From OCS155 cluster bacterium AG-426-D23 (GTDB lineage: Bacteria > Actinomycetota > Acidimicrobiia > Actinomarinales > Actinomarinaceae): a DNA stretch of 64,000 nt. Positions 6,270-64,000 of this stretch are shown here, piece by piece. The notes under the pieces were generated by a model. That model ran no database searches, was not told the origin of the DNA, and saw only the letters and a program-made list of their open reading frames with translations. How positions within the stretch are numbered: the stretch's first letter is position 1; every line of letters starts with the position of its first letter. The stretch is taken from positions 133,403 through 197,402 of the forward strand of contig QCNO01000001.1 of NCBI GenBank assembly GCA_003213165.1, written 5' to 3'. Position numbers and translations under genes: made by a program.

Positions 6270-7418
6270 ATGGAAGAATTTCAGGCTGAATCTCTAGTAA
6301 TAATATCTTTAGGAGCATTTATCTTGCCGCTTCTTGCCCAAAGAATAAAAATACCAGGGATAGTTCTTGAAATTGCATATGGAATAACAGTTGGTCCAAT
6401 ATTAGGAATTGTTGAAACTTCTGAATTCATATCTGGTTTAGCAATTTTGGGATTTCTTTTGTTAATGTTTTTGTCTGGATTTGAAATTGAACTCGATACA
6501 TTTCGTGAGAAAGGAGTAAGGACTCTTGCACTGCCAATGTCAATATATTTGTTAACTGTAGCTACATCTTTCTATCTTATTTCTAATCTTGGATATCCTA
6601 TATTTCTTGCGCTTGTTTTATGTACAACGAGTGTTGATATTGTAATCACAATATTACGAAGTGACGACACAATCAAAACGGCGTATGGACAAACTTTATT
6701 TATGGTTGCTTTACTAGCTGATATACTTACTCTCTTAGCAGCCACAGTTTATGCATCATTTATAAGAGCTGGAGGACTTTCAATTTCTAATTTGAATGTA
6801 ATACTATATTTTGTAGTTGTTATTTTAATTCTCAGAATTATTAGAAGAGTTGCCTGGTGGAATCCTCAACTATTTTCAAGAATGTTTGACGGCAACGATC
6901 CTGATGAACTTGGGATTAGAAGTTCTCTTGCTCTTATGTTAACTTTAGTTGGTGTGTCAGTCATTTTTGATATTGAACCTATCCTGGGAGCCTTTCTTGC
7001 TGGAACAATATTTGTGTTTATTTTCTCTAACCGTGGAACTTTAGAAAGTAGTTTAAAAGGTTTTTCTTATGGATTTCTCATACCAATATTTTTCATTAAC
7101 ATTGGTCTCAATTACGATATAAGTGTATTTTCAAATACACAATTTTTTGTAGATGTGGGATATCTGTTTTTAATTGCCGTAGGTGTTAAATTTTTACCTT
7201 CAATATTATTAATATTCTCAAAAATTAAATTCAGAGATATTATCGCAGGAGGTTTTTTACTTTCAGCCAGATTCAGTTTAATTATTGCAATGGCAGAAAT
7301 TGGTGTTCATTTAGATTTAATATCTGTCGAGTTAGAGCAGCAAATTATTTTATTAGCTGTAATCACAGCAACTTTCTCTCCCATACTTTTCAGAATTTTC
7401 AGAAGCAAAGCTAATTAA
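6270..7418 (+). CDS. cation:proton antiporter (CPA2 / Kef-type) membrane subunit
   Basis: 382 aa polytopic membrane protein. The N-terminus LVIISLGAFILPLLAQRIKIPGIVLEIAYGITVGP is typical of Na+/H+ or K+/H+ exchanger families. It starts 3 nt after the TrkA-like gene. Confidence 0.75.
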   Translation: MEEFQAESLVIISLGAFILPLLAQRIKIPGIVLEIAYGITVGPILGIVETSEFISGLAILGFLLLMFLSGFEIELDTFREKGVRTLALPMSIYLLTVATSFYLISNLGYPIFLALVLCTTSVDIVITILRSDDTIKTAYGQTLFMVALLADILTLLAATVYASFIRAGGLSISNLNVILYFVVVILILRIIRRVAWWNPQLFSRMFDGNDPDELGIRSSLALMLTLVGVSVIFDIEPILGAFLAGTIFVFIFSNRGTLESSLKGFSYGFLIPIFFINIGLNYDISVFSNTQFFVDVGYLFLIAVGVKFLPSILLIFSKIKFRDIIAGGFLLSARFSLIIAMAEIGVHLDLISVELEQQIILLAVITATFSPILFRIFRSKAN

Positions 7419-8320
7419 TGAATTCTAGAATTTCTTTATTTTTTAAGGGAATGCTTATGGGTGTTGCTGAAATTATACCAGGTGTTTCAGGTGGAACATT
7501 AGCCTTTATAACTGGAATTTATAATGAACTTATCAACTCTATAAAATCAATTAATTTTGAATCAATAAGTTTTTTAGCAAAATTAGAGCTCAGGAAGTTT
7601 TGGAAACACATAAACGGGAATTTTCTATTGACGTTAGTGCTTGGAATGATTATTTCAATAGTATTATTTTCAAGAATAATTTCATTTCTTTTAACTAATT
7701 ATAATTTTCATATTTGGGGCTTCTTTTTTGGTCTTATTATTTCATCAGCAATAATAATTTCAAGAAATATAAATGATTTAAGGGTAAAAAATTATGTGTT
7801 TTTAATTTTTGGACTTTTTGTATCAGGTTCTATTTCACTTTTATCACCTTCATCGAGTCCAAATTCAAGTTTTTTTATTTTTCTTTCTGGTGCCATTGCA
7901 ATATCTGCAATGATTCTTCCAGGAATTAGTGGTTCGTTTATATTAATTTTCTTGTCAAAATATGAATTTATCTTAAACTCTCTAAATAATTTCGATATAA
8001 ATGTTTTAAGTGTCTTTATTATGGGTTGTATTTTTGGACTTCTAACATTTAGTAGACTTCTTTCTTATTTATTTAATAGATTTAATGATGTAGTTATCAG
8101 TGTCCTCGTTGGATTTCTGTTAGGGTCACTCTTTAAAATATGGCCATTTATTGAAGTTGTAGAGTATACATCTACAAATGAACCACTTTATACACGTCCT
8201 ATTTTTCCATCAACTAATTTATCAACAGAAATTTTAATTTTCACAATCTTTTCAATTGTTGGATTTTTGATGATGTGGATTTTAGAAAAGAAAATTATAG
8301 GAATTAGTAATTCTAATTAA
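7418..8320 (+). CDS. DUF368 family membrane protein
   Basis: The duplicated motifs AEIIPGVSGGTLAFITGIY and ILPGISGSFILIFL are hallmarks of DUF368. The start may be the internal MLMGV at about 7454. Confidence 0.65.
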   Translation: MNSRISLFFKGMLMGVAEIIPGVSGGTLAFITGIYNELINSIKSINFESISFLAKLELRKFWKHINGNFLLTLVLGMIISIVLFSRIISFLLTNYNFHIWGFFFGLIISSAIIISRNINDLRVKNYVFLIFGLFVSGSISLLSPSSSPNSSFFIFLSGAIAISAMILPGISGSFILIFLSKYEFILNSLNNFDINVLSVFIMGCIFGLLTFSRLLSYLFNRFNDVVISVLVGFLLGSLFKIWPFIEVVEYTSTNEPLYTRPIFPSTNLSTEILIFTIFSIVGFLMMWILEKKIIGISNSN

Positions 8321-59696: not shown

Positions 59697-60089
59697 ATGC
59701 CTGTAAAAATAAGACTTGCTCAAAGAGGTAAGAAAAAGAATAGAACATACAGAGTAGTTGTTGCTGATTCTCGCTCACCAAGAGATGGAAAGTTTATTGA
59801 AGACTTGGGTTACTATGATCCACATCATAACCCTTCAAAAGTTGATATAAATGTCGACAAAGCTGTGTCATGGTTAGACAAGGGAGCTCAGCCATCAGAG
59901 CGTGCACAAAAATTGTTAGAAATTTCTGGGGCATGGGCTCAGTGGCGATCATCAAAGGGAGAGGTTGTTTCTATTCCTACTCCGCCTGCAGAAAAAGTTA
60001 AAAGTAGTTCAAAGGCAAATAAAAAGAAAGAAGAAGCTACTCAAGAAGAAACTTCTGAAGAATCTTCAGAAGAAACAGAAGAGGAATAA
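59697..60089 (+). CDS. rpsP: 30S ribosomal protein S16 with acidic C-terminal tail
   Basis: MPVKIRLAQRGKKKNRTYRVVVADSRSPRDGKFIE is canonical S16. AAGGA lies upstream. The C-terminal roughly 45 aa are Lys/Glu-rich and low complexity. Confidence 0.9.
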   Translation: MPVKIRLAQRGKKKNRTYRVVVADSRSPRDGKFIEDLGYYDPHHNPSKVDINVDKAVSWLDKGAQPSERAQKLLEISGAWAQWRSSKGEVVSIPTPPAEKVKSSSKANKKKEEATQEETSEESSEETEEE

Positions 60090-60092
60090 TTT

Positions 60093-60344
60093 ATGGCCGC
60101 AGGTTCAATTGTAAAAAATGTAGTTGAATATATTGTTACTCAAATTGTTGAAGACACGAAGTCTGTAAAAGTTGATATTGCAGATTCAGATGATGAAAAT
60201 GTAACAATTGAAGTTAGAACTTCTCCAGATGATATGGGGAGAGTTATTGGTAAAAGAGGAAGAGTTGCCAGAGCGATTCGTACAGTAGCTCAAGCAGCAG
60301 CAGATGAAGAAGGTCTTCAATCTAGCGTAGAATTTATTGACTAA
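60093..60344 (+). CDS. KH-domain RNA-binding protein (YlqC-like)
   Basis: 83 aa. The GRVIGKRGRVARAIR GxxG KH motif. It sits at the conserved position between rpsP and rimM. Confidence 0.8.
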   Translation: MAAGSIVKNVVEYIVTQIVEDTKSVKVDIADSDDENVTIEVRTSPDDMGRVIGKRGRVARAIRTVAQAAADEEGLQSSVEFID

Positions 60345-60819
60345 AAATACTTTATATCAAGTTGCTAAATTAGGTAAACCTCACTCCCTAAGTGGATTTC
60401 AATATATAAATATAGACAATTTTTTTAGAAGATTTGACTTAAGCAATATATCAATGCAAGTTGGTAATGAAGAACTAGTAGTTGAGAATTTTAAAACCCA
60501 CTTAAAAGATAGAAATCTAATTAAATTTAAAGATTTTGACACAATAGAGTCAATTGAGAGATTTAGGGATAAGGTTGTCTTTATTTCAGATAAATATAAA
60601 AATGATTTTTTGAATGATTGTAAGTTACCTTGGCCTGGATTTTTCATAAATAAAAACTTAGGCAAATCAGATTTAGTTTTACAAGGATTTAATTTTTCTC
60701 AAAACTTTACTTTTTGCGAAGTTTCTAATTTAACTGATTTTCCTATTCCTTATAACGATAAGTTTTTTTCCTATCAGAATGATGAACTTGTTTTAATTAA
60801 TGACAACCTAACTATTTAA
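60337..60819 (+). CDS. rimM: 16S rRNA processing protein RimM
   Basis: The N-terminus VAKLGKPHSLSGFQYINI resembles the RimM vGri.kphGlkGe.kv motif, and a C-terminal PRC barrel follows. Position after the KH gene. The start is uncertain. Confidence 0.6.
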   Translation: MTKNTLYQVAKLGKPHSLSGFQYINIDNFFRRFDLSNISMQVGNEELVVENFKTHLKDRNLIKFKDFDTIESIERFRDKVVFISDKYKNDFLNDCKLPWPGFFINKNLGKSDLVLQGFNFSQNFTFCEVSNLTDFPIPYNDKFFSYQNDELVLINDNLTI

Positions 60820-61512
60820 CCAGTCAAAAATTAAATTACTGTATTTATCTTCTATCATATTCTCTGGATGCCATTGAATACCAATAGCATTCCATTCATT
60901 AGTAGTTTCTATTCCTTCTATAACACCATCATTTGATTTTGCAGTAATTTTTAAATCTTCACCTAATTTATCGATGCCTTGATGATGTATAGAATTTACC
61001 ATTATATTTTTTTCTTGAATTATTTCATATAGTTTTGAGTCTTCGTAAACTTCAATATCATGAATGTGAGATCGAGCATCTTCGAAAGGTTTATCGTGCT
61101 CGATGTCTTTAAAACCTGAATCACCCAGATCTTGATATAAAGTACCTTTTTTATAAACATTTAATAATTGATGTCCTCTACATATTGCAAGAGTTTTAAC
61201 ATTGTTTTTTTCTGCAGATTTCAGTAGATTCAATTCAGTAGAATCTCTATTGTCTGATATTCGAATTGTTTTAGAATCAATTTTTTGATTATACCTTTCT
61301 GGATTAATATCTCCACCTCCAGAAATTATCAAAGCATCAAATTTTGCAGCATCAATTTCCAGGTTATCATTTTGTGGACCAATAACTATCGCAGTATTCC
61401 CAAATTTGTTACATAAGTTTATAAAATCATTGTTTATTACAACAGATGGAATATTTCCAGGCGCCATTTGAACATCTTTTATTCCAGTTGAGATTCCAAT
61501 TAATTTACTCAT
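60808..61512 (-). CDS. class-I glutamine amidotransferase / peptidase C26 (gamma-glutamyl hydrolase-like)
   Basis: LAICRGHQLLNV (catalytic Cys) and IQWHPE (His). The start was chosen at MSKLIGIST to avoid a long overlap with the upstream gene. Confidence 0.7.
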   Translation of the reverse strand: MSKLIGISTGIKDVQMAPGNIPSVVINNDFINLCNKFGNTAIVIGPQNDNLEIDAAKFDALIISGGGDINPERYNQKIDSKTIRISDNRDSTELNLLKSAEKNNVKTLAICRGHQLLNVYKKGTLYQDLGDSGFKDIEHDKPFEDARSHIHDIEVYEDSKLYEIIQEKNIMVNSIHHQGIDKLGEDLKITAKSNDGVIEGIETTNEWNAIGIQWHPENMIEDKYSNLIFDWLNS

Positions 61513-61921
61513 ACACAAAAATACATTGAACTTCCACTGATGCATTCAGTGGTAAGCTGGCAACCCCAACAGCAGATCGTGTTGACTTTTTATCAAAATA
61601 CTCTGCAAGCTTATCTGTAAAACCATTCAATATTTTTGCATGATCTTGAAAACCATTATCAGCATTTACGAACCCTAATACATTTACTGGCTGTAGATTT
61701 TCAATTTCACCATTTGCTAAAAGTGTAGATATAGTTAATTCAGCACATAGTGAAGCAGCTTCATAACCATCTTCCATTGATACCTCAGAAGGTATCTTTC
61801 CTTGAAATTTTTTCTTATCAGTAAATGGAACGTGACCAGATGTATATATATAATTTCCAACTTTTTTATATGTTACATAATTTCCAATAGCCTTTGGTGC
61901 AACTGGTAATTCTTTATCCAT
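61505..61921 (-). CDS. RidA/YjgF family (reactive enamine/imine deaminase-like) protein
   Basis: 138 aa. APKAIGNY..SGHVP and the C-terminal VEVQCIF pattern of the YjgF/chorismate-mutase-like fold. Confidence 0.7.
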   Translation of the reverse strand: MDKELPVAPKAIGNYVTYKKVGNYIYTSGHVPFTDKKKFQGKIPSEVSMEDGYEAASLCAELTISTLLANGEIENLQPVNVLGFVNADNGFQDHAKILNGFTDKLAEYFDKKSTRSAVGVASLPLNASVEVQCIFVYE

Positions 61922-62918
61922 TGTTTAGTAAGTTTCCAATTAAATCTACAACTCTGTTTGAATATCCCCACTCATTGTCATACCAGCAAACTACTTTTAC
62001 ATGATTACCTTCTAGTAGCTGAGTTGAAGAAGCATCATATATACTTGAGTGCGGATTATTTAAAATATCTGTAGATACAAGAGGCACCTCAGAATACTCT
62101 AATATTCCGTTCAACTCATTGTCTGCAGCATTCTTAACTGCTTTGTTGATATCATCTATAGAGACTTTTTTTTCTAATTCAACGACGAGATCAACAACGC
62201 TCCCATCAGGAACAGGCACTCTCATTGCCATCCCATCTAGTTTTCCATTAAGTTCTGGAAGTACCATACCAACAGCTTTTGCTGCACCTGTTGATGTTGG
62301 GATAATATTCTGTGTTGCACTACGTCCTCTTCTAAAGTCACTATGGGTAGTTTCAGCTAATGCTTGGTCATTAGTATATGCATGTACTGTGGTCATTAAT
62401 CCGGATATAATTCCAAAATTATCATCTAAAACTTTTGCTATAGGTGCTAAACAGTTTGTAGTGCAAGATGCATTTGATACTATTTTATCCTCAGGCTTAA
62501 GATCACTATCATTTACCCCGAGGACAATTGTTGCATCTATATCATCTTTAGGAGGTACAGTTAGTAATACTTTTTTAGCTCCGGCATCAAGATGTTTATT
62601 TAATGATTCACTATCTCTGAATATTCCAGTAGATTCAACAACAACATCAACATTCATCTCTTTCCATGGAAGGTCCGCAGGGTCTTTAATTGAAGTCAAT
62701 TGAATTGACCTGTCATCTACAATTAATTTGTCCCCAGCAACGCTCACATTACTATCTAATATTCCCATTACTGAGTCATGTTTAAGCAAGTAAGCAAGAT
62801 TTTCGTAGTTTCCTAAATCATTTATTGCCACGACATTTATATCAGAATCATTTTCTACAATAATCCTGAGAATTGATCTTCCAATTCTTCCAAAACCATT
62901 TATAGCTACGTTACCCAT
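61914..62918 (-). CDS. gap: glyceraldehyde-3-phosphate dehydrogenase, type I
   Basis: NGFGRIGR, the active site SNASCTTNCLAP, TTVHAYT and WYDNEWGYS are all canonical. Confidence 0.9.
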   Translation of the reverse strand: MGNVAINGFGRIGRSILRIIVENDSDINVVAINDLGNYENLAYLLKHDSVMGILDSNVSVAGDKLIVDDRSIQLTSIKDPADLPWKEMNVDVVVESTGIFRDSESLNKHLDAGAKKVLLTVPPKDDIDATIVLGVNDSDLKPEDKIVSNASCTTNCLAPIAKVLDDNFGIISGLMTTVHAYTNDQALAETTHSDFRRGRSATQNIIPTSTGAAKAVGMVLPELNGKLDGMAMRVPVPDGSVVDLVVELEKKVSIDDINKAVKNAADNELNGILEYSEVPLVSTDILNNPHSSIYDASSTQLLEGNHVKVVCWYDNEWGYSNRVVDLIGNLLNNG

Positions 62919-63923
62919 TTAAAGCTCTTGTCCTAATCGTTTAATGGTGTCTATTATTCTTGAAGCGTAACCCCAACCGTTATCAAACCAAATTATTAAT
63001 TTTATTTTCTTATTATTAATACCCATTGTAGCAAGACCATCTATCAGGCCAGAAAGTGTGCTTCCGACTACATCAGATGAAACGATTGGGTCGTATGTAA
63101 TTCCGATTATGTTTTTTAACTCATTTTCTGAATAATTTTTAAGGAGATTGTTTATTTCTTCAATAGTCGTTTCTTTTGTAATATCTATTGTTAGGTCTAC
63201 TGTACTTCCATCAGGAATCGGAACTGTCATTGATGAGGATGCTATTTTATTTTTTAAAAAGGGAAGTACATTTACAATTACTTCGGATGATTTAGTAATA
63301 CTAGGTATTATATTTTCTCCAGCAGCCCTATTTAGTCTAAAACCTTCACCAGCTACATCAGCTAATCTGTTTGAGTTTGAATATCCATGTACAGTTGTTA
63401 AAAAAGCTCTTTCGACGCCTACATCTTTATTTAAAGCCTTTAGTATCGGTGCAACAGCATTTGCAGTATTCGATCCAAGTGAAAACACATCAGAATTAAA
63501 GTCAGTGTATTCATCGTTTGCACCAGGTACATAAATTTGAATATCTTTAAAGTTTTCTGGTGTAGAAGCAATTATTACTTTTTTACACCCTTTTGATAAA
63601 TGTATATCAACTTCTTCTTTTGTTTTTGGTTTACCAGTTGCAAGTATTACAACATCTGTTGCAATTGCTTCCCAATCTGCTTCATTTCCACCCTTCCAAG
63701 AGTTAAATATGATTTCTTTATTATCTACAACAATACCTTTTTCAGTCTCATGGATATCAGCATTTAATTTTCCGTATATTGAATCATATTTGAGCAAATA
63801 AATTAAGTTTTTTTTATCTGCGGTATCAGATATTGAGACTATGTTAATTTCTTTGTCTCCCAATGTTTGTCTAAATAGATCTCTACCTATTCTTCCAAAA
63901 CCAACAAGTGATACGTTTGTCAT
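62919..63923 (-). CDS. GAPDH-family paralog lacking the catalytic cysteine (Cys to Asn)
   Basis: It has the full-length GAPDH layout: GFGRIGR, TTVHGYS and WFDNGWGYASR. The active-site stretch reads SLGSNTANAVAP against SNASCTTNCLAP. The DNA at 63468-63470 is att (reverse complement aat), coding Asn. It abuts the canonical gap gene with no spacer. Confidence 0.75.
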   Translation of the reverse strand: MTNVSLVGFGRIGRDLFRQTLGDKEINIVSISDTADKKNLIYLLKYDSIYGKLNADIHETEKGIVVDNKEIIFNSWKGGNEADWEAIATDVVILATGKPKTKEEVDIHLSKGCKKVIIASTPENFKDIQIYVPGANDEYTDFNSDVFSLGSNTANAVAPILKALNKDVGVERAFLTTVHGYSNSNRLADVAGEGFRLNRAAGENIIPSITKSSEVIVNVLPFLKNKIASSSMTVPIPDGSTVDLTIDITKETTIEEINNLLKNYSENELKNIIGITYDPIVSSDVVGSTLSGLIDGLATMGINNKKIKLIIWFDNGWGYASRIIDTIKRLGQEL

Positions 63924-64000
63924 TAACCCTCACAAAACTAATGAGTAATTGTTGTTACAATCAACTAATAATATACCTTAAAAACACAAAGCATGAGAGA

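Follow-up and report, generated by a model that had tools for sequence, protein, structure and literature searches.

A stretch of 64,000 nucleotides of contig QCNO01000001.1 from OCS155 cluster bacterium AG-426-D23, referred to below as the window, carries two adjacent genes encoding glyceraldehyde-3-phosphate dehydrogenase (GAPDH) homologs. The product of the upstream gene, here named gapX, is a paralog in which asparagine stands in the place of the catalytic cysteine. GapX is one instance of a widespread two-gene module comprising a pseudoenzyme-type GAPDH paralog and a canonical GAPDH, for which no description was found in the literature searches reported below. With belief and doubt evenly balanced, GapX is proposed to be a non-catalytic, NAD(H)-binding subunit that is co-produced with GAPDH and probably forms an assembly with this enzyme.

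The gene gapX lies at positions 62919-63923 on the reverse strand and encodes 334 amino acids, according to the open reading frame (ORF) and its translation, Pfam matches, and a residue map. Its product has the two-domain GAPDH fold, matching Gp_dh_N (2.4e-23) and Gp_dh_C (1.7e-40), and no DNA-binding, RNA-binding or other extra domain was detected in the Pfam scan. The score against TIGR01534, the equivalog model of type I GAPDH, is 274.8 bits and falls under the cutoff of 367.2; all nine NCBIfam models that match GapX likewise score under their cutoffs. Residues are numbered here according to GAPDH from Bacillus (Geobacillus) stearothermophilus, verified at the anchors C149, H176, D186, R231, and N313. 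The active-site stretch of GapX is SLGSNTANAVAP, with the motif S-N-T-A-N-A compared to S-C-T-T-N-C in GAPDH. As the original prediction had stated, the position of the catalytic Cys149 is occupied by asparagine (Asn152 of GapX, AAT codon at 63468-63470, reverse strand) and that of the second cysteine, Cys153, by alanine (Ala156). Its observation that the NAD motif and the general base are retained is likewise borne out by the residue map: GFGRIGR is accompanied by Asp33 (= Asp32) and Asn315 (= Asn313), and His179 (= His176) is found within TTVHGYS. Ser148, Thr150, and Tyr317 are also kept.

The anion sites (Ps and Pi) of GAPDH, formed by Arg231, Arg195, and Thr208-Gly209, are lost in GapX. 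The earlier claim that the Pi-binding arginine persists was mistaken, as the Pi-site Arg195 is replaced by Leu197 (CTA codon, 63333-63335) and the Ps-site Arg231 by Thr233 (ACA codon, 63225-63227), both on the reverse strand, and only Arg194 and Arg197 remain. In place of the Pi loop T208-G209-A210-A211-K212, GapX has T210-K211-S212-S213-E214 (63282-63296, reverse strand). Furthermore, Tyr311 is changed to Phe and Glu314 to Gly. Lacking both the thiol nucleophile and the Arg195/Arg231 phosphate sites, GapX is predicted to be inert for the oxidation of glyceraldehyde 3-phosphate (G3P). Thiohemiacetal chemistry is excluded without a thiol nucleophile at position 149, just as the original prediction had reasoned. 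Its suggestion of a pseudoenzyme subunit or an enzyme with new chemistry fares differently in its parts. The idea of GAPDH as the partner gains strong comparative support from the invariant linkage described below, while G3P and erythrose 4-phosphate (E4P), which had been considered as substrates, are unlikely to serve as such because both Arg195 and Arg231 are missing.

Other family assignments were considered and rejected. With the E4P dehydrogenase (Epd) models TIGR01532 and NF010058, GapX reaches 192 bits (cutoff 531) and 204 bits (cutoff 539), respectively, and the cysteine is absent. ArsJ-associated GAPDH and aspartate-semialdehyde dehydrogenase also score under cutoff, and both require the cysteine.

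An AlphaFold2 single-chain model of GapX, built on 31 family members, has a mean predicted local distance difference test score of 80.9 and a predicted template modelling (TM) score of 0.83. It superimposes on B. stearothermophilus GAPDH (1GD1) with a TM score of 0.87. Low confidence is confined to the S-loop, as is expected for a lone subunit. Among PDB sequences, no solved structure of the GapX type was found; the best matches are ordinary GAPDHs of about 39% identity, the top ones being 1NQ5 and 1NPT, which are the C149S and C149A mutants of GAPDH.

The residues retained across the lineage point to two properties of the protein. GxGRIGR, Asp32, Thr96, Asn313, and Tyr317 are kept throughout, and His176 in nearly all members. 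GapX is predicted to bind NAD(H), based on the conservation of this Rossmann motif together with Asp32, Thr96, Asn313, and Tyr317. The lineage also keeps Tyr/Phe46, Ser/Thr48, and Asp186, and its S-loop (RLADV...FR..RAA.ENIIP) is strongly conserved; mutagenesis of the B. stearothermophilus enzyme is reported to mark these residues as hot spots of the tetramer interface. Their conservation suggests that GapX is able to enter a GAPDH-type tetramer.

The neighbouring gene gap (61914-62918, reverse strand) encodes the proposed partner, a canonical type I phosphorylating GAPDH of 334 amino acids. Its product matches Gp_dh_N and Gp_dh_C in Pfam and is 37% identical to GapX. The active site reads SNASCTTNCLAP, the full set of catalytic and anion-site residues is present, and the TIGR01534 score of 447 bits is above the cutoff of 367, in agreement with the earlier description of this copy as canonical. 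No third GAPDH copy was found within the window. The two full-length genes had been reported to abut with zero spacer, and this is the case: the gapX stop and the gap start form the junction TAA|ATG at 62916-62921 (reverse strand), with both genes in the same frame. This arrangement is read as translational coupling.

In Actinomarinales, the S-loops of both paralogs have changed. The partner GAPDH carries AETTH instead of ADVPH (Asp186Glu, Pro188Thr; approximately 62340-62370), and residues 186-194 of GapX (approximately 63342-63368) show ADVAG instead of ADVP (Pro188Ala). A joint change of this kind would be consistent with co-adaptation of contacting loops, for which it is weak evidence because it represents a single lineage event.

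The linkage between the two genes is invariant. A lineage scan that took a single genome for each GTDB species yielded 80 loci, and gene context was examined over 17 kb per locus. A canonical GAPDH gene, identified by SNASCTTNC, Arg195, and Arg231, follows gapX on the same strand at its 3' side in 80 of 80 loci wherever the contig continues. These loci span Actinomarinales, other Acidimicrobiia, Thermoanaerobaculia, and Holophagales. All six further clusters with a downstream contig are also paired with a canonical GAPDH, and their residues at position 149 are Asn (P0125), Ser (P0126 and P0131), Val (P0130), Ala (P0134), and Pro (P0164). P0145, with Val, lies outside this count, as its 3-kb contig ends just past the gene. 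The spacer between the gapX stop codon and the start codon of gap could be determined in the 73 loci in which both starts are placeable. A spacer of -4 nucleotides (ATGA) is the commonest, with 40 loci, followed by 0 (14 loci), -1 (8 loci), and -8 nucleotides (6 loci). Thus the spacer is zero or negative in 68 of 73 loci, and positive in five.

The remaining flanking genes vary with the lineage, and those of other Acidimicrobiia are unrelated. A Pfam scan of the flanks of four loci (L043, L054, L063, and L086) detected nothing conserved, with two exceptions: a phosphofructokinase gene downstream in one Holophagales locus, and two radical S-adenosylmethionine (radical-SAM) genes in L054. In the window, gap is followed by a Rid-family gene and a C26 hydrolase gene. 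As these two occur only in Actinomarinales loci and the other flanks vary, the gapX-gap pair is the conserved unit, with Rid and C26 as an addition in Actinomarinales.

The window belongs to Candidatus Actinomarina; it is 99% identical to the single-cell genome AG-349-A01 and has a GC content of 32%. Identity to GapX is 64-99% within Actinomarinales, 40-47% in other Acidimicrobiia (from sediments, groundwater, and soils), and 39-41% in Acidobacteriota (Thermoanaerobaculia and Holophagales). The lineage comprises Acidimicrobiia and Acidobacteriota, plus further clades. It has a signature that sets it apart from canonical GAPDH: Gly209-Ala210-Lys212 are changed to [NK]-S-E (T-[NK]-S-x-E), Glu314 to Gly, and Tyr311 to Phe, while Cys153 is mostly Ala. 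Arg231 is Asn or Thr across the lineage loci except for L058 (Gly) and L074 (Arg). The motifs DPIVSSD and WFDNGWGY are common to the lineage. Many loci are contigs of metagenome-assembled genomes (MAGs), some of which are probably mis-binned. Three loci labelled Gammaproteobacteria or Verrucomicrobiales (L046, L049, and L059) carry a gapX-gap pair of the Acidimicrobiia type (42-46% identity, Asn149), for which mis-binning is likelier than transfer.

Phylogeny was limited to a neighbour-joining tree of 174 sequences with 100 bootstraps. All GapX sequences form a clade without any canonical GAPDH in 72 of 100 bootstraps, and a clade of the partner GAPDHs is recovered in 88. On this basis, GapX is an old, separate lineage and no recent copy of its neighbour. 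Two proteins from the search of cluster representatives, P0124 (2089 amino acids) and P0143 (1455 amino acids), consist of four or two GAPDH units, whose active-site motifs alternate between SNASCTTNCAAP and SAASCTTNA[YF]AP. From this alternation they are taken to be two GAPDH types fused as polyproteins.

Position 149 behaves differently between clades. All members from Acidimicrobiia have Asn149. The 17 Acidobacteriota orthologs comprise 12 with Cys, four with Asn, and one with Ser; they are 70-79% identical to each other, and the divergence of the non-Cys orthologs does not exceed that found within the Cys-bearing set. A search of representatives of clusters at 50% identity gave additional clusters with the GapX signature, in which residue 149 is Ser, Val, Ala, Pro or Gly. 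Some distant clusters, such as P0158 (Arg) and P0226 (Ser), lack His176. Since residue 149 varies both among clades and among close orthologs, a thiol there appears to be dispensable for the function of the GapX lineage, and residue 149 would not act as a nucleophile. The distribution further indicates that Arg231 was lost before, or independently of, Cys149, and that Cys149 was lost several times. The only lineage member seen with both Cys149 and Arg231 is L074 (Acidobacteriota MAG SMAG_U2844, ORF 6469-7533), which has Leu at Arg195 and Asn at Gly209; it may be close to an ancestral, still catalytic state. The pocket as a whole seems to have been remodelled rather than simply decayed, because Asn149 is kept via synonymous change in Acidimicrobiia and the substituted pocket residues are themselves conserved.

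GapX is a functional gene under purifying selection. Its ratio of nonsynonymous to synonymous substitutions (dN/dS) against orthologs from other genomes is 0.05-0.13, compared to 0.03-0.08 for the canonical gap and 0.08-0.25 for the two downstream genes. A search of a collection of 5.8 billion proteins gave 120 best matches with 67-100% identity, mostly from marine metagenomes, in the assemblies of which GapX homologs are numerous. Among these 120 best homologs, the motif S[LI]GSNTANA is kept in 108 of the 108 sequences that cover it, so that the asparagine is conserved in orthologs, a point the original prediction had left for comparison. Of the Asn149 codons across the loci, 37 are AAT and 36 are AAC, in genomes of very different composition. 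The Asn (AAY) and Cys (TGY) codons are two bases apart.

The genes of the cluster have not diverged to an equal extent. When positions 60808-63923 of the window are compared with a TARA scaffold (L001, 10001-13116), the synonymous divergence (dS) of gapX is 1.06 with 86% amino acid identity. The corresponding dS values for gap, Rid, and C26 are 0.31, 0.10, and 0.21, with 94-97% amino acid identity. A similar gradient is seen in L011. This pattern suggests that gapX either marks a boundary of recombination or draws on a pool of alleles that is more variable. In the Candidatus Actinomarina single-cell genome AG-917-O09 (L036, 8001-9006), gapX is frameshifted into ORFs of 254 and 89 amino acids, owing either to an error in the single-cell assembly or to a genuine but rare disruption.

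In the proposed role as a non-catalytic subunit, gapX and gap would be translated from one mRNA, with gapX immediately before gap. GapX would then assemble with canonical GAPDH into mixed tetramers and set the stability, cooperativity or regulation of GAPDH. A physical association of GapX with GAPDH, and an effect on its activity, are expected by analogy. GapX combines three features of a pseudoenzyme subunit, namely the loss of catalytic residues, purifying selection, and constant co-occurrence with an active paralog. A bolder and more doubtful extension is that GAPDH in Acidimicrobiia, Acidobacteriota, and the further lineages could be an obligate hetero-tetramer of catalytic and ancient dead NAD-binding subunits. 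Half-of-the-sites behaviour, a classical property of GAPDH, would be hard-wired in such an enzyme, and the remodelled pocket (Asn149, Asn/Thr231, and T-N-S-x-E) would serve as an allosteric ligand site.

Several points weigh against the assignment as a non-catalytic GAPDH subunit. Genes of enzymes that catalyse successive steps are likewise found tightly coupled in operons. The replaced pocket residues (Asn/Lys209, Ser210, Glu212, Asn/Thr231, and Gly314) are conserved, Asn149 does not vary in any of the Acidimicrobiia, and His176, Ser148, and Thr150 are retained; a working, remodelled ligand site fits such a pocket as well as a dead site does. The conserved interface is as compatible with a GapX homotetramer as with a mixed tetramer. 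The pairing is known from 17 kb per locus, and a stand-alone gap may exist elsewhere in these genomes. The separation of the GapX clade is based on neighbour-joining only and has moderate support (72%). Finally, Acidobacteriota members with Cys149, His176, and Arg195 might still be enzymes.

The main rival is that GapX is an active, thiol-independent, NAD-dependent oxidoreductase, which is possible but judged unlikely. Such an enzyme would perform direct hydride transfer, in which His176 serves as the acid/base and the substrate is polarised by Asn149, Ser148, and Thr150. This substrate would be without the C3 phosphate that G3P carries and would have a metabolic link to the GAPDH step. The conserved NAD motifs, His176, Ser148, and Thr150 are in line with this, as are the strong purifying selection, the maintenance of Asn149 through two codons in Acidimicrobiia, and the conserved, non-random nature of the pocket substitutions (T-[NK]-S-x-E, Asn/Thr231, and Gly314). 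However, residue 149 is free to vary between clades (N/C/S/V/A/P/G), even among Acidobacteriota orthologs that are 70-79% identical, and the distant clusters P0158 and P0226 have lost His176. The catalytic site has also lost its surrounding network of Tyr311 and Glu314, and outside Actinomarinales the pair is not accompanied by any further conserved pathway gene.

Less probable still is that GapX binds NAD(H) as a free-standing regulator or moonlighting protein, such as a redox sensor or a binder of nucleic acids or proteins. In this case, no stable mixed tetramer would form, and co-expression with GAPDH would merely match glycolytic demand. The combination of a conserved NAD pocket with lost catalysis would suit such a protein, and there is precedent in a trypanosomatid GAPDH-like protein that is a structural component of the flagellum (PMC4106842). 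On the other hand, this explanation does not account for the constant position directly 5' of gap, which is seen in two phyla together with an overlap of stop and start codons, and GapX lacks the nucleic-acid-binding or other extra domain that a role of this kind might use.

The two genes downstream of gap in the window have been considered as partners since the original prediction, which described the operon as continuing into RidA and a C26 amidotransferase. The third gene of the cluster (61505-61921, reverse strand) matches the Pfam families Ribonuc_L-PSP and YjgF_endoribonc and overlaps the gap stop by 8 nucleotides. With 46 bits against a cutoff of 106 for the RidA subfamily model TIGR00004 and Pfam matches only, 'Rid family' (YjgF/RidA-like) is the safe label. 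The fourth gene (60808-61512, reverse strand) encodes a Peptidase C26 or class-I glutamine amidotransferase-like hydrolase (Peptidase_C26, 1e-51) with the motifs CRGHQ and WHPE. The mechanically called ORF has 245 amino acids, starts at 61545 (60808-61545, reverse strand), and overlaps the Rid gene by 41 nucleotides. A start at the ATG at 61512 (Met12 of the listed ORF), giving 234 amino acids and an 8-nucleotide overlap, is likely because the gene calls on related contigs (L001-L006) have 234 amino acids.

The continuation of the operon, with its 8-nucleotide overlaps, is therefore as described, but the weight given to the two genes as partners is not upheld, since they occur only in Actinomarinales. 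Both are present in L001-L037 and absent from L038-L087, the 50 loci outside Actinomarinales, and were accordingly rejected as clues to the function of GapX. A pathway formed by all four genes in Actinomarinales is very unlikely. It would have the C26 hydrolase free an amine from a gamma-glutamyl conjugate, GapX convert the amine to an imine, the Rid protein hydrolyse the imine, and GAPDH oxidise the resulting aldehyde. The gapX-gap-Rid-C26 block is kept, overlapping or abutting, in 36 of 36 Actinomarinales loci, and the Cys-His-Glu motifs of C26 proteins and the Arg of RidA-type proteins are retained. However, genes that are missing from every gapX-gap locus outside Actinomarinales cannot define the function of GapX. 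In a streamlined genome with 32% GC and overlapping genes, unrelated genes in one operon are plausible, and no amine dehydrogenase is known to have a GAPDH fold.

An origin of the feature in a sequencing error or in pseudogene decay, for which the missing cysteine is the sole argument, can practically be dismissed, which answers the refuting conditions named in the original prediction: the motif is the same in more than 100 independent assemblies, the family is conserved across phyla, the frame is intact, dN/dS is around 0.1, and the codons differ by two bases.

Upstream of gapX lies a divergent intergenic region of 69 nucleotides (63924-63992, assigned to neither strand), which carries the gapX Shine-Dalgarno sequence GTGAGGGTTA ahead of the ATG. 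A scan of the cluster for promoters and terminators gave matches no more frequent than in shuffled sequence. A radical-SAM gene begins on the forward strand at 63993, in the same arrangement as in L001-L006. It is the first of two radical-SAM genes, of 372 and 611 amino acids, the second of which has a CofH/MqnC C-terminal region. The Acidimicrobiia MAG L054 has this pair of radical-SAM genes as well, again divergent to gapX. Actinomarinales carry both radical-SAM genes, together with the gapX-gap-Rid-C26 block, between rpsP-khpA-rimM and trmD-rplS, which usually form one ribosomal operon. The positions noted for this layout are 59697-60819 and 63993-64000 in the window (both forward strand) and 5972-9932 in L001.

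GAPDH is among the most thoroughly studied enzymes and in bacteria is generally treated as a homotetramer. Full-text literature searches of incomplete coverage turned up no bacterial GAPDH paralog that lacks the catalytic cysteine. Matches were limited to the trypanosome GAPDH-like protein and general pseudoenzyme papers, and a paper on an auxiliary GAPDH of Pseudomonas putida does not deal with this subject. If the proposed role is correct, GapX would be a new type of subunit in the central carbon metabolism of Candidatus Actinomarina, an abundant ocean genus, and its relatives. It would also be a bacterial example of a pseudoenzyme originating from a homo-oligomer, in which substrate binding appears to have been lost first and the nucleophile then repeatedly. 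Members are annotated by JGI as 'glyceraldehyde 3-phosphate dehydrogenase', and the single member named by NCBI is a 'hypothetical protein'; the finding would correct both annotations and bear on metabolic reconstructions in which these genomes are credited with two GAPDHs.

Among known systems, GapX resembles type I GAPDH of Geobacillus stearothermophilus (1GD1) in its fold, in about 39% of its sequence, and in the NAD motif, Asp32, Ser148, Thr150, His176, Asn313, and the S-loop. It differs from type I GAPDH in the absence of Cys149/Cys153 and Arg195/Arg231, the altered Pi loop, the changes Tyr311Phe and Glu314Gly, and its placement in a separate clade. The chloroplast enzymes GapA and GapB provide a case of two GAPDH paralogs in one A2B2 hetero-tetramer, one of them being specialised for regulation. 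GapB retains catalytic competence, and its regulation works via an extension at the C-terminus. Unlike GapB, GapX has neither such an extension nor the catalytic residues, and its assembly with GAPDH is a prediction.

Dead paralogs acting as subunits include HisZ with HisG, as well as the regulatory subunits of yeast NAD-dependent isocitrate dehydrogenase and of plant pyrophosphate-dependent phosphofructokinase. In the prozyme of trypanosome S-adenosylmethionine decarboxylase, a dead paralog is retained by selection because it hetero-oligomerises with the active enzyme and controls its activity (PMC6221367). None of these cases involves GAPDH, and for GapX both the complex and the effect on activity are proposed. 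The nearest precedent is the trypanosomatid TbGAPDHL, in which the nucleophilic Cys is replaced by Pro; it is predicted to be inactive, with a partly conserved cofactor region (PMC4106842). TbGAPDHL is flagellar, poorly conserved between species, and unlinked to the gene of the active GAPDH (PMC4106842). Orthology between the two proteins is unlikely. GapX is bacterial, strongly conserved, and always operon-coupled to GAPDH.

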